Positions 405 to 40,524 of a stretch of 64,000 nt of DNA are shown here, one piece after another (position 1 is the first letter of the stretch; every line of letters begins with the position of its first letter). The translations under genes were made by a program, and so were the position numbers. The notes beneath the pieces were generated by a model. That model searched no databases. It was not told the origin of the DNA and saw only the letters and a list, made by a program, of their open reading frames with translations. Origin of the DNA: a phage; NCBI GenBank assembly GCA_024790105.1, contig GCA_024790105.1_3053.1. One strand, 5' to 3'.

Positions 405-554
405 TTACTGCATGACTGTGATAACTGTCATGATAACACGTTGAATTCCGAACGCAAGAAGACCTCCTGCTACGGCTGGAACGACACCTAAACCCGCCAG
501 TAAAATGCTACCGGATACTAATGCAGCGCTTGTAATACCTATGAATGGACTCAT
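405..554 (-). CDS. small hydrophobic protein (49 aa), below ORF-track cutoff
   Basis: ATG 554-552 overlaps gene 52 stop (ATGA); MSPFIGITSAALVSGSILLAGLGVVPAVAGGLLAFGIQRVIMTVITVMQ. Confidence 0.45.
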   Translation of the reverse strand: MSPFIGITSAALVSGSILLAGLGVVPAVAGGLLAFGIQRVIMTVITVMQ

Positions 555-1879
555 TTGATTTCCTCTAAATCTTTAGTGTATTCGGTAACTACATCAGTAG
601 TTTTCCAATATTCGTTTTCTTCTTTCTTAGCTTTAGCTTCTTCAGCAAGTTTCTTTGCTTCATCAGAAGTCATGTGAAAAATATTCATTCCAATTAGTTT
701 ATCAACATAAGAAGAATACATATCGATTTTCGAAAGTTCTTCGGTCAGTTCTTTACGAGTTTTACCCTGCACAACGATTTCACCTGAAATTACTTTCTTA
801 ATGAAATGCGCCTTGGCAAAGGCTAAACGAAAAGCGGACTCAGTTTCTTTAATTTTGTTATCAATTCGTTTTTGGACATAAGTTTTACGAACTTCAACAA
901 AGTCTTTAATTAAATCAACTACGTTATCGTAAACTTGTAGTTTTCCTTTCTCATTAATAACAGTAATATTCTGAGAACGACGCTCAATCAACCCGAAGTC
1001 TTTCATAATTTTCGCGTGGCGTTCTTCTTCATTATCGCTCAAAGAATATTCTTTACGGAATTTAACTTTAAAGCCAAAACCATGCTCACCACAAGCATCA
1101 TCCCATGTAATGAAGCCTTTATCTTCAAGTGGGTCTAAGATTTTACTCACATAAGTTTCACGATCATACTTATACGGAATCTCAGTGATATTCATTTGAG
1201 TTCGTGAAGTAAACTTATATGTTCCACGAATTTCATATTGGCCATCAATCTCAACGACTTCACCACGAAATTCTGGGAATTCTACCTTCGGTTTAGTTAC
1301 TTTCTTTCCTTGAAGAGCTTGTAGTACAGCTTTCTTGACAGAAGAAACACTATGAGGAAGAATGTAAGTTGCATAACCAGTTGCAATACCGGAGACACCA
1401 TTAAGAAGAACAGTAGGAATAATAGGCAAATAGAAAGCAGGCGGAATGTGTTCTTTATCTTGATGTACCGGAGCATATTCAGTATCTTTATATACGTTAT
1501 AGAAATTTTTACTTACACGAGCAAAAATATAACGACTTGCTGCTGCTTTTTGGACGGTACGAGAACCAAAGTTTCCTTGGCCATCTAACAAAGGAAAGTT
1601 ATTATTCCAAGTATTAGCCATCAAAGCACCTGCGTCTTGCGCAGAGATTTCACCATGATGATATCCAAGGTCCGCTACACCACCTGCAATAGAAGCGAGT
1701 TTGTGAAACTTATCTTTATTTCCTCGTGCCAAATCAAGAGCTCGAGCAATAACAAATCGTTGAACTGGCTTAAATCCATCAATCATATTTGGGATAGCAC
1801 GATTTTCAACCGTGTACATAGCATAAGCCAATGCTTCATTATCAATGATACTTTTTAAATCGCGATTATTCAGTTGCAT
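551..1879 (-). CDS. 52: DNA topoisomerase II medium subunit gp52 (GyrA/ParC-like)
   Basis: 442-aa ORF, ATG at 1879; catalytic-tyrosine topo II sequence; position between motA and ndd. Confidence 0.95.
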   Translation of the reverse strand: MQLNNRDLKSIIDNEALAYAMYTVENRAIPNMIDGFKPVQRFVIARALDLARGNKDKFHKLASIAGGVADLGYHHGEISAQDAGALMANTWNNNFPLLDGQGNFGSRTVQKAAASRYIFARVSKNFYNVYKDTEYAPVHQDKEHIPPAFYLPIIPTVLLNGVSGIATGYATYILPHSVSSVKKAVLQALQGKKVTKPKVEFPEFRGEVVEIDGQYEIRGTYKFTSRTQMNITEIPYKYDRETYVSKILDPLEDKGFITWDDACGEHGFGFKVKFRKEYSLSDNEEERHAKIMKDFGLIERRSQNITVINEKGKLQVYDNVVDLIKDFVEVRKTYVQKRIDNKIKETESAFRLAFAKAHFIKKVISGEIVVQGKTRKELTEELSKIDMYSSYVDKLIGMNIFHMTSDEAKKLAEEAKAKKEENEYWKTTDVVTEYTKDLEEIK

Positions 1880-2263: not shown

Positions 2264-2721
2264 TAATATGCCTGCAAAACGAATTTAAAGTTATCAGCCA
2301 GCATACGGTTCATTTCTTCAAGTGTTTGATACTCAGAATGATGATTACGAGTAAACGCTAAAGCTAACTGTCCTTTTCCAAATCCCGTCGTCAGAGGTTT
2401 CATCTTAGAAGCAGGCAGATAAAACACTGTGTATGGAACATTGTTATTTGCAATAGTACGTGCAAGCTGAGACCGACGTTGACGAATATGACTTAGAACT
2501 GCACTGAATCCTTGCTTAGAACGCTGATTACCTACATAAAATCGTGCTGACACACATGGATTACTAAATGGACGACCATCTAATTTACTTACTAAAAAGT
2601 AAAATCCAGGTTTAGATAAAATATCTTTATGCGGAGTTCCCAAAAACCATTCACCATTCTTGATTGTACCAATAACAGTAGCGCCTGCATTATTCAGATC
2701 AGTAACAGTCATATATTTCAT
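2263..2721 (-). CDS. ndd: Ndd nucleoid disruption protein
   Basis: 152-aa product from ATG at 2721 ([13 protein letters not shown]...) preceded by GAGG SD; ORF-track start is an upstream non-ATG. Confidence 0.85.
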
Positions 2722-2779
2722 ATTAATTTCCTCTAAATTATTTTCTACTCCAAGGCCGCATGAATACGCGGCCATTAAA

Positions 2780-2995
2780 TTAATCGTCGCAGTCGACGCT
2801 CAATTCCCAAAACTCTTCTACGGTATAAGTTTCAGTATCATTTTCAATACAGAAACGTTCATTACTATTGTTTGCTAAAGTAGCGTTAACTGTCATTTTT
2901 TCGCTAGTGCTCTTAAGAGGTGAAATACGAATTAACTGATCGCCGTTATCTAAACAAAAAATTTCACCAACTTTTACATCTTTAAAGATTTTCAT
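2780..2995 (-). CDS. hypothetical protein (71 aa)
   Basis: ATG 2995 with GAGGTG SD. Confidence 0.6.
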
Positions 2996-3003
2996 AATTC
3001 ACC

Positions 3004-3114
3004 TCAAGGAGTATAAAATCCGAATGCAGTTGTTGACCATCCCATCCAATATGGAAAATTTGCACCAATGTAAAACATAAGAATATAAAACCAACCGCTC
3101 AACAAATTCATCAT
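3004..3114 (-). CDS. tiny hydrophobic ORF (36 aa)
   Basis: ATGATG at 3114; overlaps stop of upstream gene; Trp-rich membrane-like peptide. Confidence 0.3.
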   Translation of the reverse strand: MMNLLSGWFYILMFYIGANFPYWMGWSTTAFGFYTP

Positions 3115-3308
3115 TTTACACCATTCCAAATTGTTTCAACCACAGATTTTAAACCATTTTGATGAATATCAATTCCGACTACTGTCATCAAATAAATTCC
3201 AACTACAACTGAACCTAAGGCAAAAATCAGCATAAAAATGAATAAAGCCGGAAAAATATTATCGAAAAACCATTCAATAAATGTAAAAGCACTGCGTTTA
3301 CGCTTCAT
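3111..3308 (-). CDS. small membrane protein (65 aa)
   Basis: ATG 3308 with GAGGAAAAT SD; hydrophobic; ORF-track start lies upstream. Confidence 0.55.
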   Translation of the reverse strand: MKRKRSAFTFIEWFFDNIFPALFIFMLIFALGSVVVGIYLMTVVGIDIHQNGLKSVVETIWNGVK

Positions 3309-3315
3309 ATTTTCC

Positions 3316-3429
3316 TCACATAAATCCAAAGTAAACGTTTAATACATCAATCATTAAAACGATTGGGAATATACTCAAAACTATTAGTATTATAACTACA
3401 TTCCATATAGCTTTAACAATCTTTTTCAT
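3316..3429 (-). CDS. small membrane protein (37 aa)
   Basis: ATG 3429 directly after promoter-leader GGAGGAACAGAAA; MKKIVKAIWNVVIILIVLSIFPIVLMIDVLNVYFGFM. Confidence 0.45.
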   Translation of the reverse strand: MKKIVKAIWNVVIILIVLSIFPIVLMIDVLNVYFGFM

Positions 3430-3440
3430 TTTCTGTTCCT

Positions 3441-3487
3441 CCGTAGTTGATAGTTGTATAGTACCACAGAGGAACAGTCTTGTAAAC
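3441..3487 (-). promoter_or_regulatory. early promoter cassette
   Basis: GTTTAC (3487-3482), TGGTACTATACAACTATCAACTACGGAGG leader supplies the SD. Confidence 0.6.
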
Positions 3488-3493
3488 AACTTT

Positions 3494-3592
3494 TTAAAAA
3501 TATTCGTAATAAATGTGAATACCAATCACCACTGCTGAAACCTGTGCAACCCACCACGCACAAGCAATAAGTACAGAATTCAAAATTTTCAT
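3494..3592 (-). CDS. tiny hydrophobic ORF (32 aa)
   Basis: ATG 3592 overlapping upstream stop (ATGA); MKILNSVLIACAWWVAQVSAVVIGIHIYYEYF. Confidence 0.3.
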   Translation of the reverse strand: MKILNSVLIACAWWVAQVSAVVIGIHIYYEYF

Positions 3593-3675
3593 AATAACCT
3601 CATCACAAAAGTAAATGTTAAACAAATTAATGGAATACTAATTAACCAAACGAAACACCACCATAATGAACTCAT
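3589..3675 (-). CDS. tiny hydrophobic ORF (28 aa)
   Basis: ATG 3675 overlaps upstream stop (ATGA); MSSLWWCFVWLISIPLICLTFTFVMRLL. Confidence 0.3.
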   Translation of the reverse strand: MSSLWWCFVWLISIPLICLTFTFVMRLL

Positions 3676-3935
3676 AGCTCAATCTCAGCGATTTTCATTT
3701 CATTACTATTAATAGCCGCTTTAAGACTATCTGAAAGAATTACATTCCAATGGTCATTCATATGACCATTAACTAAGCGTGTAATTTCTTCGGGAGTTGA
3801 AAAATAAGGCGTATCAGACTCCCAATGCGATAATCCTAAGCGAGTATAAATCATACCTTCATCATCGCTAGAATATTCAACTGACATAAACTCATCAGTT
3901 ATTTTATGTTTAGCGTAATAAAATTTAAATTTCAT
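3672..3935 (-). CDS. hypothetical protein (87 aa)
   Basis: ATG 3935 after GGAGGAGCGGAAA leader. Confidence 0.65.
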   Translation of the reverse strand: MKFKFYYAKHKITDEFMSVEYSSDDEGMIYTRLGLSHWESDTPYFSTPEEITRLVNGHMNDHWNVILSDSLKAAINSNEMKIAEIEL

Positions 3936-3945
3936 TTTCCGCTCC

Positions 3946-3993
3946 TCCGTAGTTGATAGTTGTATAGTACCACAGTCCTTGTGGTATGTAAAC
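3946..3993 (-). promoter_or_regulatory. early promoter cassette
   Basis: GTTTAC 3993-3988, conserved -10/leader block. Confidence 0.6.
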
Positions 3994-4010
3994 CGTTTTG
4001 TGAAAATTTT

Positions 4011-4568
4011 TTAAATGGAAAGATACCATCCGTTGTAGTTGCTTTTTCTTACAACCTTACGAAGGTCTTCTCTATCACCGATGAACTTCGGAGTGTACTG
4101 GATGACACCTGGGTGAATTTCTTTAGTGTTGAATATAATTATACAGTCAGCGACCTGATGATTCAGAATGGGCCCTAGATTTATTCCAGAACCGTATGGA
4201 TACTCTCCGCTACATCCTGTTGTTACAGAAATCCAACGTGAGTCAGTTTGATGTGTCTTAACTTCTACACGAAGCCCGCAGTATCTTGGATGCGCCAATA
4301 CATCCCATGCGTATGTATACGGGTCATTAACGTCCTCTTGGCCTTTGTTAACATACCCGCTTAGCCAATCTGCTACAAAAAACTCTGCGTACACCGCGAT
4401 ACGGCATCTTTCGATAACTTCTGCCTTATCCTGATTTGGATTTTGTTTTAAAGAGTATCTTGCTGTATCAGCAATTTTGACCTTCATTTCACTAGTCAAG
4501 TCACTGTTAGATAGGGTAAATGATGGAATCTGAAATAGTCTCTGCAAACCCGGATTTGTTTTCTGCAT
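4011..4568 (-). CDS. denB: endonuclease IV (DenB)
   Basis: 185-aa ORF, ATG 4568 with AAGGAAAG SD; length and position match T4 denB. Confidence 0.8.
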   Translation of the reverse strand: MQKTNPGLQRLFQIPSFTLSNSDLTSEMKVKIADTARYSLKQNPNQDKAEVIERCRIAVYAEFFVADWLSGYVNKGQEDVNDPYTYAWDVLAHPRYCGLRVEVKTHQTDSRWISVTTGCSGEYPYGSGINLGPILNHQVADCIIIFNTKEIHPGVIQYTPKFIGDREDLRKVVRKSNYNGWYLSI

Positions 4569-4626
4569 TTAAACTTTCCTTTATGTCGGAATCACTGATA
4601 TTCATATAATAAATCATAATTTCTCT

Positions 4627-4650
4627 TAAAACAAAAGGGCCGAAGCCCTT
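4627..4650 (-). terminator. C(UUCG)G hairpin terminator
   Basis: AAGGGC-cgaa-GCCCTT hairpin 4635-4650 plus U-rich tract on minus strand. Confidence 0.5.
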
Positions 4651-4653
4651 ATT

Positions 4654-4848
4654 TTATTTGAATTGTGCGATTCTTTTTTCTAAACACTCTGCGTAAGATT
4701 TCATTGAGATGAACTGTGAAAGCAGCAGTTCTTGCTCAACTGCACTAACCGTTAGAAACTTTGCGCTTTCTAAAAATTTGCTCAGTGCATTAATTTTGAG
4801 CATTAATTGATCGTATTCTTCTTTTACTCGTGCTTGATAACCTAACAT
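4654..4848 (-). CDS. hypothetical protein (64 aa)
   Basis: ATG 4848 with AAGGA SD. Confidence 0.6.
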   Translation of the reverse strand: MLGYQARVKEEYDQLMLKINALSKFLESAKFLTVSAVEQELLLSQFISMKSYAECLEKRIAQFK

Positions 4849-4876
4849 AATTTTCCTTAGTTAAGGGCCGAAGCCC

Positions 4877-5815
4877 TTATTTAAATTGTTCAGTAACGTC
4901 TTCAATTACTTCGTATTGGCAGGTACGCATTTTAGCGTCGTTGTAATCAATCGGAATTGATACTACATCACGAGGATGAACTTTAACTTTTACAACTCGG
5001 CTGGTTGAACCACCGAAGTGACGAATATAAGATTTAGAACACACATGCAGACCACGAGAACAAGTTTGTGTATCATCGTCATTTACACGAGTACGTGGCA
5101 TTTTAACTACTTTACCAGGACTGTTATCAAAGGTATTTGAGTGACAGTCAAAGTAATTGCTACGAACTACTTTCCAAGCATAGAAGTAACCATCTTCTGT
5201 AATTTCAATATCGTTTGCTACCAAGAAATCAAAAAGTCGAGATACCGCTTTCTGGCTTGGGTTTTCCAGCAGATTTTCCAAGAACGGAAAATAAAATTCA
5301 AAGTTTTCACCTTTTTCCATCGAATCGAGAATACGATCAACTAAACCAGACCGCAATTCAATATTTTGATAGAATAAGCTTCCACCTTCAATTCGAACAT
5401 CGCCGGAAATATATTTTTCAACAGCGCGACGAACGTTAATTTTTTGTGCCGCTTCTTCCAACTTATCTGCTACAAGCAGATTAAGAATTTCCTGGAAGTT
5501 TGAATGAGTATTAGGAGTTGCGTTATAAGTTACACCGTCAACAGTAATTGAAATGAATTTTTTAGATGCATTCCAAATAATGTCAGATTTAGCAACTGGA
5601 GCAATAACTGCATCGCTATTAACTTTAACTGTAATATCACCGCTAATAGTAACTTTAGAGCGTTTAGCTTCTTCAGAATTTTTCAAAACACGACGGATTG
5701 TGTCAACCGATACACCTTGCCAATCAGCCAATTCCTGTTGGGTGTAATTACCACTTGAATACAGCTTAACAATTTCAGCTTGTTCGTTTTTGGTCAGGCA
5801 TTTAATATTGTACAT
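4877..5815 (-). CDS. rIIB: rIIB membrane-associated protein
   Basis: 312-aa ORF, ATG 5815 with AAGGAAAATT SD; immediately downstream of rIIA. Confidence 0.95.
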   Translation of the reverse strand: MYNIKCLTKNEQAEIVKLYSSGNYTQQELADWQGVSVDTIRRVLKNSEEAKRSKVTISGDITVKVNSDAVIAPVAKSDIIWNASKKFISITVDGVTYNATPNTHSNFQEILNLLVADKLEEAAQKINVRRAVEKYISGDVRIEGGSLFYQNIELRSGLVDRILDSMEKGENFEFYFPFLENLLENPSQKAVSRLFDFLVANDIEITEDGYFYAWKVVRSNYFDCHSNTFDNSPGKVVKMPRTRVNDDDTQTCSRGLHVCSKSYIRHFGGSTSRVVKVKVHPRDVVSIPIDYNDAKMRTCQYEVIEDVTEQFK

Positions 5816-8243: not shown

Positions 8244-8273
8244 ATTATACCACATCCTTGTGGTAAAGTAAAC
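8244..8273 (-). promoter_or_regulatory. early promoter (GTTTAC, 15 nt, TGGTATAAT)
   Basis: minus strand GTTTAC 8273-8268 and extended -10 TGGTATAAT at 8252-8244, inside 3' end of gene 60. Confidence 0.55.
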
Positions 8274-8805
8274 TACTGGCTCATCCATTCTTTACGAAGG
8301 TCAGCATTATCTCCCATGAGCATTTCAAAAAGCTCTTTCCAGTTCTCAGGAAGTTTAACAACATCATATACTGGGTTTTGAATCATTTCTTTATATTCAT
8401 CCCGCTGAAGTGAGCCCAATCCCTTGATGTATCGAATACTATGTTTAGGTAGAGCATCTTTAGCACTCTCATATTCAGCGACTGTATAAAACCATTCTTG
8501 TTTTTTACCTACCTGAGCGATGATTACAGGAGTTTTGACGAAGCGAATTCTTCCTTGTTCAAACAGTTCTGGCCAATTACTAAAAAATCCGAGCAGAGAA
8601 GGATAAATAGAACCTAATCCAATAATCTCTTAATTATGAGGTATTTCTATAGATAGCCCGAAGGCTATCCATCGTGATCTGCGTCTGTCATAATAGCGAC
8701 ATTCGCATAGTTCATTGAAGAGGATTTAATAGAACGACGAACATTGTTCTGCAATTTATATTTTTTCATATCAACGCTAGAAGAATCAATTTTTACAAAT
8801 TTCAT
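8273..8805 (-). CDS. 60: topoisomerase II small subunit gp60; join(8273..8617,8668..8805) with 50-nt translational bypass
   Basis: codons 1-46 (MKFVKIDSSS...TDADHDG) end at take-off GGA 8670-8668 followed by UAG; decoding resumes at UUA 8617-8615 after landing GGA 8620-8618; downstream 345-nt segment has no start codon and encodes LGSIYPSLLGFFSNWPELFEQGRIRFVKTP... Confidence 0.9.
8618..8667 (-). other. 50-nt untranslated coding gap (ribosomal hop) inside gene 60
   Basis: sequence GGA UAG CCU UCG GGC UAU CUA UAG AAA UAC CUC AUA AUU AAG AGA UUA UUG GA read directly on minus strand; take-off hairpin with UUCG loop. Confidence 0.9.
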
Positions 8806-9604
8806 TATACACCTCATAGAACTTTTCATCAGGAATCCAACCGCGTTTAAATTCATTAAATGCTCGGCCGAATAATTTTGAATTCACAGTTATATTATTA
8901 ACTGATTTCCATTTAGCAACTCCCGTTCGTTTATAATGATCGGGGTCATATTTCGTGACGTACCATTCATATAAATTTGGTATTAATTTTACAGCCTCTG
9001 GATTTGTCGCTGATTTATTATACCATGGTTTCGCTTTTTCAAGTTCAGCTGCTTTTGCAGTAGCAGCAACAGTATTTCCAATACCAACTAATTTTTCAGT
9101 TTTAATGCGTGGATCATTAACATGAAGACGAAAAACTTCGCCCTTTTCATTTTTAAAGCATGTCATGCCTTTAATTCCAGGAAGCTTAACACCTTTATTA
9201 ACACCGCACCATTCCTTTGGGTTAAATGATCCTTTAATTAATAAGGCGCATTTACCCGATTTAATATTTCTCATTAAAACTTTATCTTTCATAAAGTTTT
9301 TTGACCATTCAGATACTGCTCTTTGATGGTAAATTCTAGCAATTTCATATAATTTACTAGAACGTAAATATTTTTCAGTGTTTAACATTCTATTCATCGC
9401 ATATGCCATTTCACGATTACGATGAATTTTATATAGTAGAAAATGTGCTAAAAAGTGTTCACGAAAAGTCAGTTTCACCAAATTTTCTTTATCATCAGAA
9501 CCTCCCATTGATCTTGGAAGGATATGATGAATTTCACCCTTAAATTTAGAAACGCGGGTTTTACCCCGCACTATTAAGTCATTATAGATTTTTTCGTAAT
9601 TCAC
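8786..9604 (-). CDS. mobA: HNH homing endonuclease (MobA-like) inserted between genes 39 and 60
   Basis: 272-aa ORF with EIHHILPRSMGGSDDKENLV...H motif; ORF-track start at 9604 is GTG without SD, first in-frame ATG at 9508, so true start uncertain. Confidence 0.7.
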   Translation of the reverse strand: MNYEKIYNDLIVRGKTRVSKFKGEIHHILPRSMGGSDDKENLVKLTFREHFLAHFLLYKIHRNREMAYAMNRMLNTEKYLRSSKLYEIARIYHQRAVSEWSKNFMKDKVLMRNIKSGKCALLIKGSFNPKEWCGVNKGVKLPGIKGMTCFKNEKGEVFRLHVNDPRIKTEKLVGIGNTVAATAKAAELEKAKPWYNKSATNPEAVKLIPNLYEWYVTKYDPDHYKRTGVAKWKSVNNITVNSKLFGRAFNEFKRGWIPDEKFYEVYNEICKN

Positions 9605-11132
9605 CTACTGTTATCCATTTACCATTAATCTGTACTTCATCATTTTCATTTACGATAATTGTATCGCCATTTAGCTCGAAAGTAAACCACTCGCCATCTT
9701 CTTTTTCTTCAAACGCTTTTTCACCAAGAACTAATCCAGTGATTGCGCAAATATCAAACAGTTCTTTGTTTTTAAGCATATCAGCATATGACATACCCCA
9801 ACTGTTGAGAACTTTACCACGCAATGGATAACCACCGTGAAGTTCTTTATCACGAACATCAATAAGATATCCGATAGCAGAATCACCCTCAGTCAAGAAA
9901 AGAGTAGTGTCAGCATCTTTACTACAAAGATTCGCTTTGATATGTTTATGAACCTTAGCTTTAGAAGCCTTTTTAGCTGCTTTAGTTTCTGCTGCTTTCT
10001 CTGCCGCCAATTTACGAGCCAAAGCAGCTTCAATAATCGGCATCAGAATTGCTTCATTATTTAGAATAGCGCGTGAAATCTTTTTAGCATCAAGTTGAAT
10101 ATGACTACGAATTTCACCGAATGGAGAAGTCAAACGCTCTTTAGTTTGAGAATCAAATCGCATGTTTTTCATATCACGAACAAACATAACGATAGTCAAA
10201 CATTCTTTAACGCGTGCTTTAGTTACATCAATTTTGAACTTACGTTTGATTTGTGGAATAAGGTCTTCACAAATATCATCCATAACACAGTCAATGTGAT
10301 GGCCACCATTCTTAGTGTGAATGTTATTCACGTAAGTTAATTGACGAAATCCATCCGGTGAACGACCAACCGCAATAGAGCAATTTTCCTGTTCTTGAAC
10401 GATAGCATGCTCATCATACTGGCGTGCATACTTCTTAAAATTGCCCTGAACCTTTTTACCGTTAAAGGTAAATTGAATATCAGGATAAACTACTGCAAGT
10501 GTCTGGAGACGATCTAGTGTAATGTCAAGATAAACTTGAGATAGCTCATTAGTTTCAAATGACATAAAATCAGGAATGAAAGTAACGCGAGTTCCTTTCC
10601 ATTTTCCAGGAATAGTTTCCCATGATTTATTTTCCATGCCGTTTGAACAACGAACTACAATATTATTTTGACCGTCGCCAGTTTCACCGACAAACATCAC
10701 AGAAAAAATGTTAGTTAAACTAGAACCAACACCGTTCATACCACCGGTGACACGTTCTTTATCATCACCAAAGTTACCACCCGCTTTTGGAATAGTCCAC
10801 GCAGCAACAGGACCAGGAATTTCTTCACCGGTAGGTGTTTTAACCATCGCCTGTGGAATACCGCGACCGTTATCTTCAACTGTTACTTGATTATTTTTAA
10901 TAGTAACATTAATTTTATTCGCGAATTTAAACTTAGTACGAATACCTTCATCTACCGAGTTATCGATAATTTCATCAATAAGCTTAACAAGACCAGGTAC
11001 ATACTGAACACTTTCCCATTTACCAAACAGAAAGCGCTCATGCATTTCATTAGCAGAAGAGCCAATATACATGCCGCTACGCTTTTTGATATGTTCAATA
11101 TCGCTCAGAATTTTAATTTCATTCTTAATCAT
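9582..11132 (-). CDS. 39: topoisomerase II large subunit gp39 (GyrB-like ATPase), truncated form completed by gp60
   Basis: 516 aa from ATG 11132 (MIKNEIKILSD...) with GAGGATAA SD; ORF-track start is GTG one codon upstream. Confidence 0.95.
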   Translation of the reverse strand: MIKNEIKILSDIEHIKKRSGMYIGSSANEMHERFLFGKWESVQYVPGLVKLIDEIIDNSVDEGIRTKFKFANKINVTIKNNQVTVEDNGRGIPQAMVKTPTGEEIPGPVAAWTIPKAGGNFGDDKERVTGGMNGVGSSLTNIFSVMFVGETGDGQNNIVVRCSNGMENKSWETIPGKWKGTRVTFIPDFMSFETNELSQVYLDITLDRLQTLAVVYPDIQFTFNGKKVQGNFKKYARQYDEHAIVQEQENCSIAVGRSPDGFRQLTYVNNIHTKNGGHHIDCVMDDICEDLIPQIKRKFKIDVTKARVKECLTIVMFVRDMKNMRFDSQTKERLTSPFGEIRSHIQLDAKKISRAILNNEAILMPIIEAALARKLAAEKAAETKAAKKASKAKVHKHIKANLCSKDADTTLFLTEGDSAIGYLIDVRDKELHGGYPLRGKVLNSWGMSYADMLKNKELFDICAITGLVLGEKAFEEKEDGEWFTFELNGDTIIVNENDEVQINGKWITVGELRKNL

Positions 11133-11201
11133 CACTTATCCTCGTTTGGTTTCGGGAATATTATACTCCGGTAGTCATAAAGCTAAAGGCCCGAAGGCCT
11201 T

Positions 11202-29647: not shown

Positions 29648-30313
29648 TTATAGTAGTGTTCTTGTTCCACGAAATACTTCGAGCATTCTTGCATAAGATT
29701 TATTTGGAAATCCAGCTTCAATTGCTAATTTTTTAAGCTTAATAGCACCGGGTTTTCCAGAGTTTTCCCATATTTCTTTAATCTTTTCAATGTTATCCCA
29801 CATTATTGGGTCACGTTTATGTGATGGTTTATTTCTATTATAACCATATGGATTATTAAGCAAAGCTTCTTTTCGTTTTGCTTTAGTTTCTTCTGACTGC
29901 TTTTTGCCTAGCTGGGCTTTCCGGCAAACATCACTAAATCCAAGATGTTTTGGTTTTCCTTTTTGAGCTTTTGAAATTTTTTCTTTGGTTTCTGATGAAA
30001 CTCTATAACCAATTCTTCTACCACCCTCTCCACCAATTTTTAAATTATAAGTCATAGGATCATTTACCACATCTATTGTTACTAATTCTCTTTCAGCATC
30101 ACGGGCTGATTTAAAATCTTTATAAAACCCAAGAATGCTTAAATTAAAATTTTTCTTACCATACTTTTTCTTGGCTTGTGCTAATAAAGTTCCTGATCCC
30201 ATATAACCATCATTTAAATCATCGGTTGAATGAGTTCCATAGTAAATTTTATTATTAACTAAATTAGTTATAACATAAGTATAATTATATTTCTTTTCTT
30301 TATGTCTTTTCAT
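29648..30313 (-). CDS. segA: GIY-YIG homing endonuclease SegA
   Basis: 221 aa from ATG 30313; YVITNLVNNKIYYGTHS GIY-YIG motif; between uvsX and glycosyltransferase. Confidence 0.8.
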   Translation of the reverse strand: MKRHKEKKYNYTYVITNLVNNKIYYGTHSTDDLNDGYMGSGTLLAQAKKKYGKKNFNLSILGFYKDFKSARDAERELVTIDVVNDPMTYNLKIGGEGGRRIGYRVSSETKEKISKAQKGKPKHLGFSDVCRKAQLGKKQSEETKAKRKEALLNNPYGYNRNKPSHKRDPIMWDNIEKIKEIWENSGKPGAIKLKKLAIEAGFPNKSYARMLEVFRGTRTLL

Positions 30314-30317
30314 GTCA

Positions 30318-31160
30318 TTAATCAACTGCTATTGGATGAATAGCATTAAACTTATGAAATGCTTCTGATTTTTCTTTACGCGAAACACACATGCGAAGAA
30401 CCTTTAATGGCTCGTCTTCTTCACCCAATGATTTTCGTTTTTCAATATTCGATGTTTTCCAACGAGCTTGCTCTGGAAACTCTCTATTGATTTGCTCAAG
30501 CGCTCTATTATGTTTAGAATTACTACGAATTGAACTACACCCACCGGGAGCCTGTGATTTTCCAGATACAACTAGATATTTGAACAAGGCCAAATGCGGA
30601 TAACCTTGATTAATTAAATTGAGAAATGCATACATATCTTCACATAAATCAATTTTTCCATACCCAATTTGTTCTGTCGTAAGTTTTCCGAGGTCATACC
30701 ATGTATTCGTGAATCCATATGAGTTTTCACGATAATTACCCCAAGATGAAGTAATTTTAAAAATTGGTAGACGAGCATGACCGTGATAATACCCGCAATC
30801 CATGGCATCTTCAACGTATTGAATTAATTCATAGAACTGTTCACGAGTTAATTGATTAATTTTATCTACACGCCGTTTATCGTCTCTCTTTCGTATTGAA
30901 CTCATACGAATAGTAGTATCATCATCAATCATCCAGATTCGTTGACCTGCATACATATCAGTAATTGCTTTACGAGTACCGGAAATTCCATTAACATCAT
31001 CAGGAATAGTTACAATTTTAGCTCTAGACCCATAAGCGTCATGATAAGCTTTTTCTTCATGTTCACGCACTACAATATGGGGTTCATAATCAGTCGGAAA
31101 CATATTAAGGGCAGAAACTGCCCCTACACGTTGATAGCTCGGAATTACGAATTGAATCAT
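30318..31160 (-). CDS. GT-A fold (family 2-like) glycosyltransferase at the beta-gt locus
   Basis: 280 aa from ATG 31160; VIPSYQR and IWMIDDD (DxD) motifs; does not resemble T4 beta-gt; ATGA overlap with gene 42. Confidence 0.7.
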   Translation of the reverse strand: MIQFVIPSYQRVGAVSALNMFPTDYEPHIVVREHEEKAYHDAYGSRAKIVTIPDDVNGISGTRKAITDMYAGQRIWMIDDDTTIRMSSIRKRDDKRRVDKINQLTREQFYELIQYVEDAMDCGYYHGHARLPIFKITSSWGNYRENSYGFTNTWYDLGKLTTEQIGYGKIDLCEDMYAFLNLINQGYPHLALFKYLVVSGKSQAPGGCSSIRSNSKHNRALEQINREFPEQARWKTSNIEKRKSLGEEDEPLKVLRMCVSRKEKSEAFHKFNAIHPIAVD

Positions 31161-37598: not shown

Positions 37599-38285
37599 TT
37601 AAAAATCGTGGGTAGAATCAGCTTCAAGAGCTACTACATAATTCGCGTGTTCACCTTCAAATTTAGCAGCGCCTTGTTTACCTTTTGCCCAAAGCAGAAG
37701 TTTATAATTTCCTGGTTGCATTTTCATATTTGCCATATTGATAATGAAATTAAATGTATTTTCACCATCATAATCACCAAGAGTCAAAGAATATTTAACA
37801 CGGGTAAGAGCAGAATCTTCTACTTTATTAAAACCGTTAATTACGATTTTACCTTCTTTTACCGTGATAGCAATTGTATCAATTTGCAGACCACGAGATA
37901 CACGCAATAGTTGTTGAAGGTCTTCAGCTTTAATTTCAGTAACAACAGATGCTACCGGGAATGGAATTGGTTTATTAGGAGCAACTACTGTACTCGGATC
38001 GGCTGCTGGCCAAAAAATTGTTGAACGAGCATCAGCAATTTTAATATTTCCATCTTCTGACTGGGAAATTTCTGCATCGTCATTAACTAGAGACAGAATA
38101 CCGAGAAAACCGTTCAAATCGTAAATTGCTACATCAAAATCAATAACGTCAGAAATATTTGCTTCCGCATAAGTTGTACCATTAACTGCGCGAGTCATAA
38201 TAAATTGACCAGATTTAAGCATAATGCCAGAGTTAATAGTAGCGAAATTTTTCAAAATATTCAGTGTGTCTTTAGATAATTTCAT
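37599..38285 (-). CDS. 45: sliding clamp gp45
   Basis: 228 aa; ATG 38285 with AGGAAATTGAA SD. Confidence 0.95.
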   Translation of the reverse strand: MKLSKDTLNILKNFATINSGIMLKSGQFIMTRAVNGTTYAEANISDVIDFDVAIYDLNGFLGILSLVNDDAEISQSEDGNIKIADARSTIFWPAADPSTVVAPNKPIPFPVASVVTEIKAEDLQQLLRVSRGLQIDTIAITVKEGKIVINGFNKVEDSALTRVKYSLTLGDYDGENTFNFIINMANMKMQPGNYKLLLWAKGKQGAAKFEGEHANYVVALEADSTHDF

Positions 38286-39169
38286 TTCAATTTCCTATTT
38301 ACATAATAGTTAGACCAGGACCGTACAGCACCCTGATAAGATTCGTCGTTAAACCCATTAGCTACTGCAATTTTACGAAATTTATTATAACTCGGTTTTC
38401 CGTAAGCATGCCATAAAGATTTTAATTCATCTTCATGTTCAATCCAAGTTCCTCTAGCTTTAGATTTTCTAAATTTTGATTTGAATTCCGGTAAATTATT
38501 TCTAACAGTTGCTTGAATTGAAGCTCTCTGTCTTCTTTCAGCATTATTCCATAATTCTTTTTGAGATTTAGAAATTTTTGATCTTACACTTTCTGAATTC
38601 ATTATATCACTAAACTTTTTAGCATAACTACAATCAAGATATTTCAATTTCATCTTATTTGAGAGTTTAAGCTTTTTCTCATCGGTCCAGTGATTCTTCA
38701 TTGAATTAGATATTTTGTATTTTACCTCAGAACTATGTTTGTAACCTTTACGAATACCGACATACTCAGGCGTAATTTCAGATTGCGAAAGCTTTACAAT
38801 TTTTCCAGTTAAAACATTTTTATATGTTCCATATCCTTTAGCACCAATTAAAGTATTTTCATCCGCGTATGCTTTATTAAAATATTTTATATTACTTTTT
38901 GCTTTAACTTTTAATTGAAAAAATCTTTCCAATTTTCTTGGATCTAATATAGTTTCAGCTAAAATTTTGACGGTATATTTAGTGGTTTTAATAAGCTCAA
39001 AATATTCATCACTATAACTAGATGACACGCTTCCAGTATAAATCTTTCCAGCTGAATCAATTATATTTGTTCCATCGAAAATTGCGTTAATTTTTGAACC
39101 TATATAATAACACGGAAAAATATTTTTAGCTTCCCGCTCTGGAAAGCTAATAAGATATACTAAATTCAT
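38282..39169 (-). CDS. Seg-like GIY-YIG homing endonuclease (295 aa) between gene 45 and rpbA
   Basis: VYLISF...YYIGS motif, NUMOD-like repeats, C-terminal domain resembling SegA; ATGA overlaps with both neighbours. Confidence 0.75.
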
Positions 39170-39807: not shown

Positions 39808-40524
39808 ATGAATTATAAACTAATTTATGAAAAGTTAATATCTAATGCTAAATCTCGAAAACTTGATTGCTATACTGAATCTCATCACATTATACCGCGC
39901 TGTTTAAATGGAAGTGATGATGCTTCAAACTTAGTAGATTTAACACCAGAAGAGCACTATGTAGCTCATCAACTTTTAGTAAAAATTTATCCTTCTGAAC
40001 CAAAATTAGTCTATGCTGCTAACATGATGACAGTTTCTACGAAATACGCTAAACGCAACAATAAAACTTTCGGTTGGATTCGTCGTAAACTCTGGGAAAT
40101 AGAAAAGAACAAAGAATTCTCCCAGGAGACACGAAAGAAAATGTCTGATGCAGTAGCTAATAAAGCAAGACTAACTTGTCCTCATTGCGGTAAGTCTGGA
40201 TTAAGCGGGAATATGAATCGTTGGCATTTTGATAACTGCCCAAATCACCCTAATCCTAAAGTTAGACCACCAATGTCTAAAGAACACAGAAATAATATCT
40301 CAAACGGGCTTAAAGCAATCGTTCTTGAAGAAACATCCTGCGAATTCTGCGGAATGATAGGCAAGAAATGCGTTATCGCAGCGCATAGAAATTTCTGCAA
40401 GAAAAATCCAAATGGACGCAAGAAAACTGAAAAGACTGGTACTTGCGTCCATTGCGGTAAAGTTACCACTTTCGGAAATTTATCAAGGTGGCATAATGAT
40501 AACTGTAAATATAAACCTAGCTAA
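39808..40524 (+). CDS. Mob-family HNH homing endonuclease (238 aa) on plus strand
   Basis: ATG 39808 with AAGGAT SD; ESHHIIPRCLNGSDDASNLV...H motif similar to MobA N-terminus; duplicated CxxC...WHxDNC modules. Confidence 0.8.
   Translation: MNYKLIYEKLISNAKSRKLDCYTESHHIIPRCLNGSDDASNLVDLTPEEHYVAHQLLVKIYPSEPKLVYAANMMTVSTKYAKRNNKTFGWIRRKLWEIEKNKEFSQETRKKMSDAVANKARLTCPHCGKSGLSGNMNRWHFDNCPNHPNPKVRPPMSKEHRNNISNGLKAIVLEETSCEFCGMIGKKCVIAAHRNFCKKNPNGRKKTEKTGTCVHCGKVTTFGNLSRWHNDNCKYKPS

Follow-up and report, generated by a model that had tools for sequence, protein, structure and literature searches.

The phage DNA analysed here, a stretch of 64,000 nucleotides (the window), carries the gene for the large subunit of a type II topoisomerase in two pieces, with an open reading frame for an HNH endonuclease between them. 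Does this arrangement reflect the insertion of a single mobile element, and is its endonuclease intact or in decay? The gene 39/mobA/gene 60 cassette of phage T4 was reportedly described by Huang et al. in 1988. The gene 39/60 system gave the first case of programmed ribosomal bypassing, still the most extreme one, and is an example of how a selfish endonuclease can enter an essential gene with no need of intron or intein. Our reading of the sequence, to which we give a probability of roughly 0.93, is that a selfish DNA cassette of 1106 nt has entered the large-subunit gene within its TOPRIM-coding part. The split gene 39/mobA/gene 60 locus is real, ordinary for T4-like phages and already known; the present one adds a natural example in a gene background other than T4's, and no new kind of element.

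Features of the locus are collected in Table 1. All 2860 nt of 8273..11132 are colinear, without gaps, with positions 2458..5317 of phage T4T (HM137666), whose annotation carries the same four features (60, bypass, mobA and 39). A preliminary description had split a GyrB-like large subunit into gene 39 (516 aa) and gene 60 (160 aa) around an HNH ORF at 8786-9604 that overlaps both; its coordinates proved exact to the base, and the overlaps read from the sequence are 23 nt with gene 39 (9582..9604) and 20 nt with gene 60 (8786..8805). Pfam matches to gp39 (HATPase_c and DNA_gyraseB) and to the C-terminal part of gp60 (TOPRIM_C) identify the subunit, and the GHKL ATPase, transducer, TOPRIM domain and C-terminal tail of a GyrB-like type IIA topoisomerase ATPase are all present. 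The joined 160-aa gp60 aligns end to end, across the join, with the solved T4 gp39-gp60 structure 8yo3, and also matches T4, T6, eukaryotic Topo II and GyrB/ParE chains. Its N-terminal extension matches 5np6_C, a PDB chain of 46 residues whose deposited name is 'DNA topoisomerase small subunit'. The CTE has been reported as an 'assembly bracket' in the T4 topoisomerase II structure, in work on the split-subunit tails (PMC11461880).

Table 1. Features of the split topoisomerase locus, listed along the minus strand, with positions in the window.
Feature	Position	Strand	Remarks
gene 39 SD	11139..11143	minus	GAGGA
gene 39 (ORF1)	9582..11132	minus	516 aa; ATG at 11132, stop 9582..9584
gene 39 residues 1-473			native N-terminal part of topoisomerase II large subunit: GHKL ATPase, transducer, first half of TOPRIM
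inserted MobA/bypass cassette	8609..9714	minus	1106 nt; junctions from uninterrupted genes of IME537 and FL23
CTE of gp39	9585..9713	minus	43 aa (FEEKEDGEWF...GELRKNL), residues 474-516; cassette-encoded, in frame with gene 39
mobA	8786..9604	minus	HNH homing endonuclease, putatively nicking; 272 aa, GTG start
GC-rich hairpin	9553..9570	minus	5' end of mobA ORF; GCGGGG-UAAAAC-CCCGC core, then weak U-rich stretch
HNH catalytic motif	9443..9538	minus	mobA residues 23-54, GEIHHILPRSMGGSDDKENLVKLTFREHFLAH
gene 60 start signals	ATG at 8805; SD at 8810..8815	minus	SD GAGGTG; stop 8273..8275
gene 60 (ORF2)	8273..8805, join(8805..8668, 8617..8273)	minus	160 aa once 50-nt gap is skipped
NTE, unique part of gp60	8716..8805	minus	30 aa, N-terminal, MKFVKIDSSSVDMKKYKLQNNVRRSIKSSS; includes nascent-peptide signal for bypassing
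5' stem-loop	8680..8707	minus	upstream of take-off site; in both MFE and centroid structures
homR	8668..8715	minus	16 cassette-encoded codons, MNYANVAIMTDADHDG, replacing deleted target segment
take-off stem-loop	8649..8672	minus	predicted fold; 10-bp stem, UUCG loop; contains take-off GGA and UAG
take-off GGA	8668..8670	minus	codon GGA-46 of gene 60, next to UAG
coding gap, untranslated	8618..8667	minus	50 nt, UAG (8665..8667) through landing GGA (8618..8620)
SD-like GAG in gap	8627..8629	minus	6 nt 5' of landing codon
native C-terminal part, large subunit	8273..8608	minus	second half of TOPRIM and tail
gene 52	551..1879	minus	GyrA-like partner in same topoisomerase II holoenzyme; Pfam DNA_topoisoIV 6e-76; context, outside the locus

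Cassette junctions were set by end-anchored, ungapped comparison with the intact 1818-nt genes of phages IME537 and FL23, which took the place of a four-way alignment by MAFFT in which the large insertion between split and intact genes had been set wrongly. The cassette is joined after codon 473, within the TOPRIM-coding part, where it stands in place of 64 nt of the intact gene, and the lengths add up exactly to the 2860 nt of 8273..11132 (1818 - 64 + 1106); at the other end it extends 9 nt past the landing codon, as in T4. The homR segment is identical to the parental sequence at 34 of 48 nt (71%), and its 16 aa with the 30 unique aa make up the 46 codons of the NTE. These values agree with the definition of the cassette that we used: a site in TOPRIM at about codons 466-473 with 55-75 nt replaced; a length of about 1097-1106 nt, with an HNH ORF of 269-279 aa overlapping both flanks out of frame; a CTE of about 43-44 aa; and an NTE of 44-46 aa (about 30 unique and about 16 from homR). 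No remnant of CTE or NTE was seen in the intact genes of IME537 and FL23. The preliminary description had called for such a comparison with uninterrupted relatives, and would have given way had these shared the split without any trace of an endonuclease; that objection does not apply, because the close relatives are intact and have neither split nor remnant.

The phage is a T4-like Tequatrovirus and not T4 itself, its nearest records being about 95% identical over the 24 kb compared. Relative to T4T, the cassette has one difference in 1106 nt (99.9% identity) as against 81 in 1754 nt of flanking sequence (Fisher p 2e-16), the two flanks being 96.5% and 92% identical. Near-identity to T4 continues without a break over 8567..9725, a stretch that includes both mobA and the gap, and co-conversion tracts would extend no further than 11 nt on the 5' side and 43 nt on the 3' side. 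The native part of gene 39 finds its best match in cassette-free phages (FL23, 97.7%), while the cassette finds its own in T4. Full cassettes occur in 41 records, compared with about 507 phage records that have gene 39 (about 8%), and all 41 full-length matches contain both mobA and the gap. The distribution is sporadic, with closely related empty sites, and the nearest relatives by flank lack the cassette. By sequence comparison the cassette is practically T4's copy in a gene background that is not T4's, which indicates that it arrived or was exchanged horizontally, and recently; near-identity combined with sporadic presence fits spread by homing. A cassette almost identical to that of T4 in a gene diverged by 3.5-8% gives independent support for recent horizontal spread with very short co-conversion tracts. 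One block of near-identity, clean junctions and sporadic occurrence bear out the earlier proposal that endonuclease and bypass element are one inserted mobile cassette. Separately, a divergent allelic patch lies in the native C-terminal part (8387..8438); its allele is common to other Tequatroviruses with or without the cassette, and a link between patch and cassette was rejected.

Other histories of the locus can be envisaged. The split gene may be ancestral, with the uninterrupted genes of most relatives arising by precise loss or fusion, and a 'hit and run' loss followed by re-fusion has been published for Aeromonas phages (Manning & Atkins 2022). Those re-fused genes keep CTE and NTE, however, whereas IME537 and FL23 have neither and carry a different native 64-nt segment only 71% identical to homR; the restriction of the cassette to some 8% of gene 39-bearing records, and the decoupling of its relatedness from that of the flanks, also speak against an ancestral split, which we find barely credible. 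Alternatively, the endonuclease insertion and the 50-nt gap could be two independent insertions, adjacent by chance and not travelling together. Metagenomic relatives are reported in the literature to have the bypass with other endonuclease types or with none, and its authors consider that the two could at one time have existed apart, but here one near-identity block spans both, both are present in every full-length match, and co-transfer of mobA and the gap has been shown experimentally according to the literature, making independent insertion very improbable. Insertion as a single cassette is also the published view, in Manning & Atkins (2022) and, as represented in citing papers, in Bonocora 2011 (PMID 21930924, PMC3182709). 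As relayed by Manning & Atkins (2022) and Edgell et al. (2010), the latter work has the cassette mobile, MobA nicking and the bypass protecting.

Even as a single insertion, the cassette might be a fixed relic that no longer moves, with mobA a decaying pseudogene. The preliminary description, which saw no convincing ATG or SD at the start of the ORF, had suggested decay or unusual initiation. It was right about the start: the ORF opens with GTG, its first in-frame ATG is Met33, after the catalytic His-His (residues 26-27), and no canonical SD was found in the sequence upstream of the GTG (AATGGATAACAGTAG), compared with GAGGA for gene 39 and GAGGTG for gene 60. Moreover, the reference T4 record (AF158101 / NC_000866) annotates mobA as defective or a pseudogene, T4, KARL-1 and Aes012 are listed as pseudogenised (Manning & Atkins 2022), and the Pfam HNH match (PF01844, residues 24-43) scores 20.1 bits, just below the cut-off of 21.4. 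Against decay, the 272 codons are open (chance about 2e-10 in sequence of the same composition), and the product differs from the intact T4T MobA at one residue, N113 for S113. The His-His, Asn and His residues of the HNH superfamily are kept over a span of about 30 aa; the motif EIHHILPRSMGGSDDKENLVKLTFREH aligns with the HNH domain of the group II intron maturase 6me0, and MobA matches PHROG 655 'homing endonuclease' (3e-57) and phrog_12434 'HNH endonuclease' (2e-11). Homologues in phages of Proteus, Salmonella, Acinetobacter, Shewanella and Aeromonas start at the same codon, ATG or GTG ((M/V)NY), one of them, 55% identical, with GTG AAT TAC; in all five of these clades the start overlaps the gene 39 stop, and a GUG start has been predicted for mobA in print. 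All 72 strong MobA homologues (tblastn E <= 1e-30) belong to six phage host groups and 70 of them cover at least 80% of MobA; in each of the 45 matches listed, the match lies at a topoisomerase large-subunit gene. Near-identity of the cassette in diverged backgrounds likewise argues for recent movement. Because the ORF is intact, the HNH motif is kept and the GTG stands at the start codon of the homologues, we see no support for decay of mobA and consider a pseudogene very unlikely. The broken mobA of the T4 reference record shows that loss of the endonuclease is tolerated without harm; the present phage supplies an intact allele, which is useful since that record does not.

The suggestion of unusual initiation holds in part, given the GUG and the 23-nt overlap with gene 39. 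Both were already described, together with the promoter-less status of mobA (Edgell, Gibb & Belfort 2010; PMC2988022). Neither a T4 late promoter (TATAAATA) within the region nor a MotA box upstream of mobA was found, and sigma-70-like matches in the region were below chance (6 against 12.6 expected); these scans are consistent with the published view of a promoter-less cassette. The GUG, the poor SD and the overlap suggest coupled translation or re-initiation at a low level. Since mobA has neither its own promoter nor a good SD, MobA would most likely be translated from the GUG, at low level, by ribosomes ending gene 39 20 nt downstream. Lacking a canonical SD before its GTG, mobA may yield very little protein, or none.

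The bypass element consists of GGA/UAG followed by GAG-N6-GGA, with a 50-nt gap and a 10-bp stem capped by UUCG. T4 has the same gap, take-off and landing codons, stem-loops and nascent-peptide region, with 100% identity throughout; as these are all the known cis signals, bypassing would be expected to work as in T4, with an efficiency of about 50%.

In the model that we favour, the cassette carries 43 codons with which the upstream half of the gene ends as gene 39; mobA; a new SD and ATG followed by 46 codons with which the downstream half begins as gene 60, the last 16 re-encoding the deleted target; and the 50-nt untranslated gap. Judging from the identity to T4 and from the literature, ribosomes would leave at GGA-46, beside the UAG within the stable stem-loop, and the peptidyl-tRNA would cross 50 nt and land on the matching GGA, giving a 160-aa gp60 that would form active topoisomerase with gp39 and gp52. 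Published accounts require the nascent peptide of gp60 for bypassing, also give the 5' stem-loop a role, and place the MobA nick site in the homR segment. On the literature model, MobA would nick the uninterrupted gene of related phages in mixed infections and recombinational repair would copy the whole cassette, whereas carriers would be safe from their own enzyme, their MobA site being disrupted by the 50-nt gap.

Among known systems, the closest is the T4 cassette, 'clade 1' of Manning & Atkins (2022), which shares the insertion site, the 64-nt replacement and the 9 nt beyond the landing codon; the present phage differs in its flanks, in N113 and in its intact mobA. Salmonella phage S16, Proteus PM2, Acinetobacter fHyAci03, Shewanella Thanatos-1 and Aeromonas AS-gz have the same architecture (gene 39 with a CTE, overlapping HNH ORF, N-terminal ORF of gene 60, gap), with gene 39 tails homologous to the gp39 CTE. 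However, MobA of these clades is only 37-61% identical to MobA here, four of them have a 4-nt ATGA or GTGA overlap where T4 and PM2 have 14-23 nt, and their bypass sequences differ from that of T4 (PM2 compared). The mobE gene that splits nrdA in Aeromonas phage Aeh1, like the free-standing mobE of T4, belongs to the HNH Mob family and to the same PHROG, and in Aeh1 too an essential gene is split into two ORFs with added tails that permit reassembly. Overlap with the upstream ORF limits expression of mobE, and in T4 a terminator hairpin inside the 5' part of the gene does so as well (Edgell, Gibb & Belfort 2010; PMC2988022). The mobE systems differ in having another target gene and no translational bypass, and the 5' intragenic hairpin of mobA is a prediction. 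Group I intron and intein homing endonucleases also cleave an empty allele that is then repaired, with a companion element that restores the host gene and destroys the site; the mobA cassette, in contrast, uses a split protein and ribosome hopping in place of RNA or protein splicing. An intron or intein carrying the endonuclease was considered and rejected: no Rfam family reached its gathering score in the window, and Pfam scans gave no Hint domains.

The predicted hairpin in the 5' end of mobA (centroid -11 kcal/mol) has counterparts at a similar place in five of seven mobA homologues. RNAalifold on the seven 5' regions gave no structure in a common register, so the idea of a shared element draws on folds that are stable individually, and a simple terminator scan of the region called no site, this hairpin included. 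The hairpin is a possible weak terminator or attenuator. We would suggest only tentatively, and with more doubt than confidence, that such hairpins are conserved and serve the cassette as a control element, acting as a weak terminator or as a roadblock to ribosome or RNA polymerase like the published 5' intragenic terminators of mobE and segF; if so, the hairpin would balance gene 39 expression against that of mobA and gene 60 and hold MobA low. No such element is described in the literature on mobA that we consulted. In the T4, Proteus, Acinetobacter and Aeromonas clades, mobA has a GC-rich hairpin about 30-65 nt inside its ORF, and so does a free-standing MobA-like gene of phage F1. Their stems are unrelated in sequence between clades, and one compensatory change, A-U to G-C, separates the Acinetobacter and Aeromonas hairpins.

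The topoisomerase II large-subunit gene of the window is split into gene 39 and gene 60, with mobA and the ribosome-bypass element between them inserted as a single cassette. This reading of the preliminary description is right, and the coordinates, lengths and overlaps it gave for the three ORFs were all correct against the sequence. The split was confirmed by the ORFs themselves, by Pfam matches of gene 39, and by the 160-aa protein obtained when the gene 60 halves were joined across the bypass gap; this joined gp60 corresponds residue for residue across the join to the solved T4 gp39-gp60 chain (8yo3), and is also similar to the uninterrupted T6 subunit, eukaryotic Topo II and GyrB/ParE. 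The mobA ORF shares 23 nt with gene 39 and 20 nt with gene 60.

Coordinates of features in the window and of mobA hairpins in other phage records
Feature	Coordinates	Strand	Details
Gene 39	11132..9582	minus	516 aa; strong SD GAGGA; Pfam HATPase_c and DNA_gyraseB
mobA ORF	9604..8786	minus	272 codons; first codon GTG
Gene 60	ATG 8805; stop 8275..8273	minus	SD GAGGTG; 46 codons to GGA (8670..8668), then UAG
Bypass gap	8667..8618	minus	50 nt; second GGA, then frame open to gene 60 stop
mobA hairpin	9553..9570	minus	GC-rich; 34-52 nt into mobA
Hairpin, record L005	2540..2558		
Hairpin, record L009	431..460		
Hairpin, record L011	437..454		
Hairpin, record L006 (phage vB_EcoM_F1)	2534..2554		
Gene 52	551..1879		partner topoisomerase subunit
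Mob-family ORF	38282..39169	minus	PHROG 655, 4e-33; between gene 45 and gene 46
Mob-family ORF	39808..40524	plus	PHROG 655, 9e-69; between gene 45 and gene 46
Seg-type homing endonuclease ORF	29648..30325	minus	GIY-YIG and NUMOD3, Pfam 3e-9 and 1e-6

Insert borders were mapped by end-anchored comparison and pairwise blocks against IME537 and FL23, relatives that each carry a single uninterrupted 1818-nt large-subunit gene. The window and the T4-type record T4T (HM137666) shared identity with the intact genes through codon 473 (…GEKA), after which they encode a 43-aa tail, FEEKEDG…RKNL*, and the intact genes read on as ENLNYHNIAIMTDADHDGLGS. On the 3' side, homology returned after TTA GGT TCT at 8609. 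These borders place the insert at 8609..9714, with 1106 nt replacing 64 nt of the intact gene, and the length check is exact (1818 - 64 + 1106 = 2860). The deleted segment is encoded anew by the 16 codons just before the gap, MNYANVAIMTDADHDG, at only 34/48 nt identity. Length, deletion, C-terminal tail of gp39 (CTE), N-terminal extension of gp60 (NTE) and extra nucleotides all agree with the published element, which spans 1097-1106 nt, deletes 64 nt and has a 43-aa CTE, a 30 + 16 aa NTE and, in the T4 clade, 9 extra nt past the landing codon (Manning and Atkins, 2022, bioRxiv 10.1101/2022.08.31.505936). The two tails form the 'TOPRIM insertion', an assembly bracket in the T4 topo II cryo-EM structure (PMC11461880). 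The bypass signals were 100% identical to T4, both in RNA structure (5' stem-loop; 10-bp take-off stem-loop closed by a UUCG loop) and in the UAG, the nascent-peptide region and the GAG that lies 6 nt ahead of the landing GGA; given this identity, the bypass mechanism worked out for T4 should apply unchanged to gene 60 of the window.

In a megablast search of 50,697 phage records, the 2860-nt region was colinear without gaps to T4T 2458..5317 (97.1% identity), where that record annotates gene 60 (joined), a 'non-coding translational bypass region', mobA (272 aa, H-N-H family) and gene 39 at matching positions. The window's phage itself is not T4; the best records are only ~95% identical over the first 24 kb. 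Differences from T4T numbered 1 in the 1106 nt of the insert versus 81 in 1754 nt of flank (Fisher p = 2e-16), and the contrast held without a hyper-divergent patch (p = 2e-12). On the 5' side, the window has the allele of IME537/FL23, not that of T4, already 11 nt outside the junction; on the 3' side, the alleles switched within 43 nt of it. The native gene 39 part best matched phages lacking the insert (97.2-97.7%), the insert T4 strains (99.9%). Complete inserts occurred in 41 records, versus 507 with gene 39. The 72 strong MobA homologues (tblastn E <= 1e-30) all came from six phage host groups, 70 of them covering at least 80% of MobA, and among the matches listed 45 of 45 homologues sat at a topoisomerase large-subunit gene. 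This pattern of differences, relatedness and distribution is the sequence signature of a homing element, mobile now or recently; the clean borders and the insert-flank contrast likewise uphold a single inserted cassette. The homing signature agrees with the experimental result attributed to Bonocora et al. (2011): by that account, MobA nicks the uninterrupted gene and in mixed infection moves the split together with the 50-nt gap into T2, while carriers are shielded by the gap.

A divergent patch at 8387..8438, within the native 3' portion of gene 60, showed 21 differences in 52 nt versus T4T, IME537 and FL23, turning EKSEYR into QRDEYK; CJY920, BYEP01 and F1 carry matching alleles. This is ordinary mosaicism in which the cassette is not involved.

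The mobA product matched PHROG 655 'homing endonuclease' (3e-57) and Pfam HNH (20.1 bits, slightly below the 21.4-bit cut-off), and its HNH motif, EIHHILPRSMGGSDDKENLVKLTFREH, aligned with a group II intron maturase over the HNH domain of the latter. As had been noticed, mobA has neither ATG nor good SD at its ORF start; the first ATG is Met33, and starting there loses the catalytic His-His. The decay suggested on this basis is wrong. It does not fit an open 272-codon frame (chance ~2e-10), a protein one residue apart from T4T MobA, tblastn alignments to Mob-family genes that begin at MobA residue 1, or the conservation of the start across clades. At the homologous first codon, Proteus phage PM2 (protein 55% identical, also GTG AAT TAC) and Shewanella phage Thanatos-1 have GTG, and S16, fHyAci03 and AS-gz have ATG. 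In every clade compared the mobA start overlaps the gene 39 stop, as ATGA or GTGA in four clades and by 14-23 nt in PM2 and the T4 clade. Compared with HM137666 (2014..2832), the T4 reference record NC_000866.4 (2014..2810) is 11 nt longer in the region and annotates a broken mobA and 'gene 60.1'. The intact 272-aa ORF is present in T4T, RB55, RB59 and several resequenced T4 stocks, and mobA annotation is thus inconsistent across T4 records. Counting all T4-type records apart from the reference, at least 12 have mobA intact, and the broken version is not representative.

Among the free-standing endonuclease genes of T4, mobA is listed as the sole one with a predicted GUG start; it is described as a cassette that lacks a promoter and overlaps its neighbour by 23 bp, and its translation as probably infrequent, by ribosomes 'scanning' once they have terminated on the upstream ORF (Edgell, Gibb and Belfort, 2010, PMC2988022). 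Low-frequency translation, by ribosomes that would scan on from terminated gene 39, is most likely how MobA is expressed here. A sigma-70-like match (9658..9686, minus strand; TTTACT-17-TACAAT, 9/12) lies in the CTE-coding part upstream of mobA; it was not taken as promoter evidence because the region has fewer matches of this kind than chance would give.

A GC-rich hairpin lies near the 5' end of mobA. PM2, fHyAci03, AS-gz and the MobA-like gene of F1 have comparable, stable GC-rich hairpins with unrelated stems in a similar position (z-scores -3.3 to -4.8), overall ~30-65 nt into the ORF in several clades; that of S16 is weak and that of Thanatos-1 further downstream. One compensatory change separates the Acinetobacter and Aeromonas copies. 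RNAalifold gave no consensus structure for the mobA hairpins because they are not in a common register, a simple terminator scan did not call the T4-type hairpin, and the Mob-family ORF at 39808 has no such hairpin. As 5' intragenic terminators have been published for mobE and segF, a weak terminator or attenuator role is plausible, although we rate it as less likely than not.

Everything essential about the cassette has already been published (1988, 2010, 2011, 2022); the sole local news is a non-T4 Tequatrovirus with an intact, virtually T4-identical copy.

The window also holds two other Mob-family ORFs and a Seg-type ORF. T4 is not known to carry endonuclease genes at the site of these two Mob-family ORFs, which lie between gene 45 and gene 46. 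The ORF at 39808..40524 is antisense to its neighbours, being the only plus-strand ORF of at least 200 aa in the window. In some Tequatroviruses, F1 (NC_054912, 684..3298) and NRG-P0074, the large-subunit gene is uninterrupted and directly adjoins, through a TAATG overlap, a downstream free-standing HNH ORF whose first 70 aa are ~60% identical to MobA; this MobA-like gene thus lies beside the topoisomerase target gene, whereas mobA of the window lies inside it.
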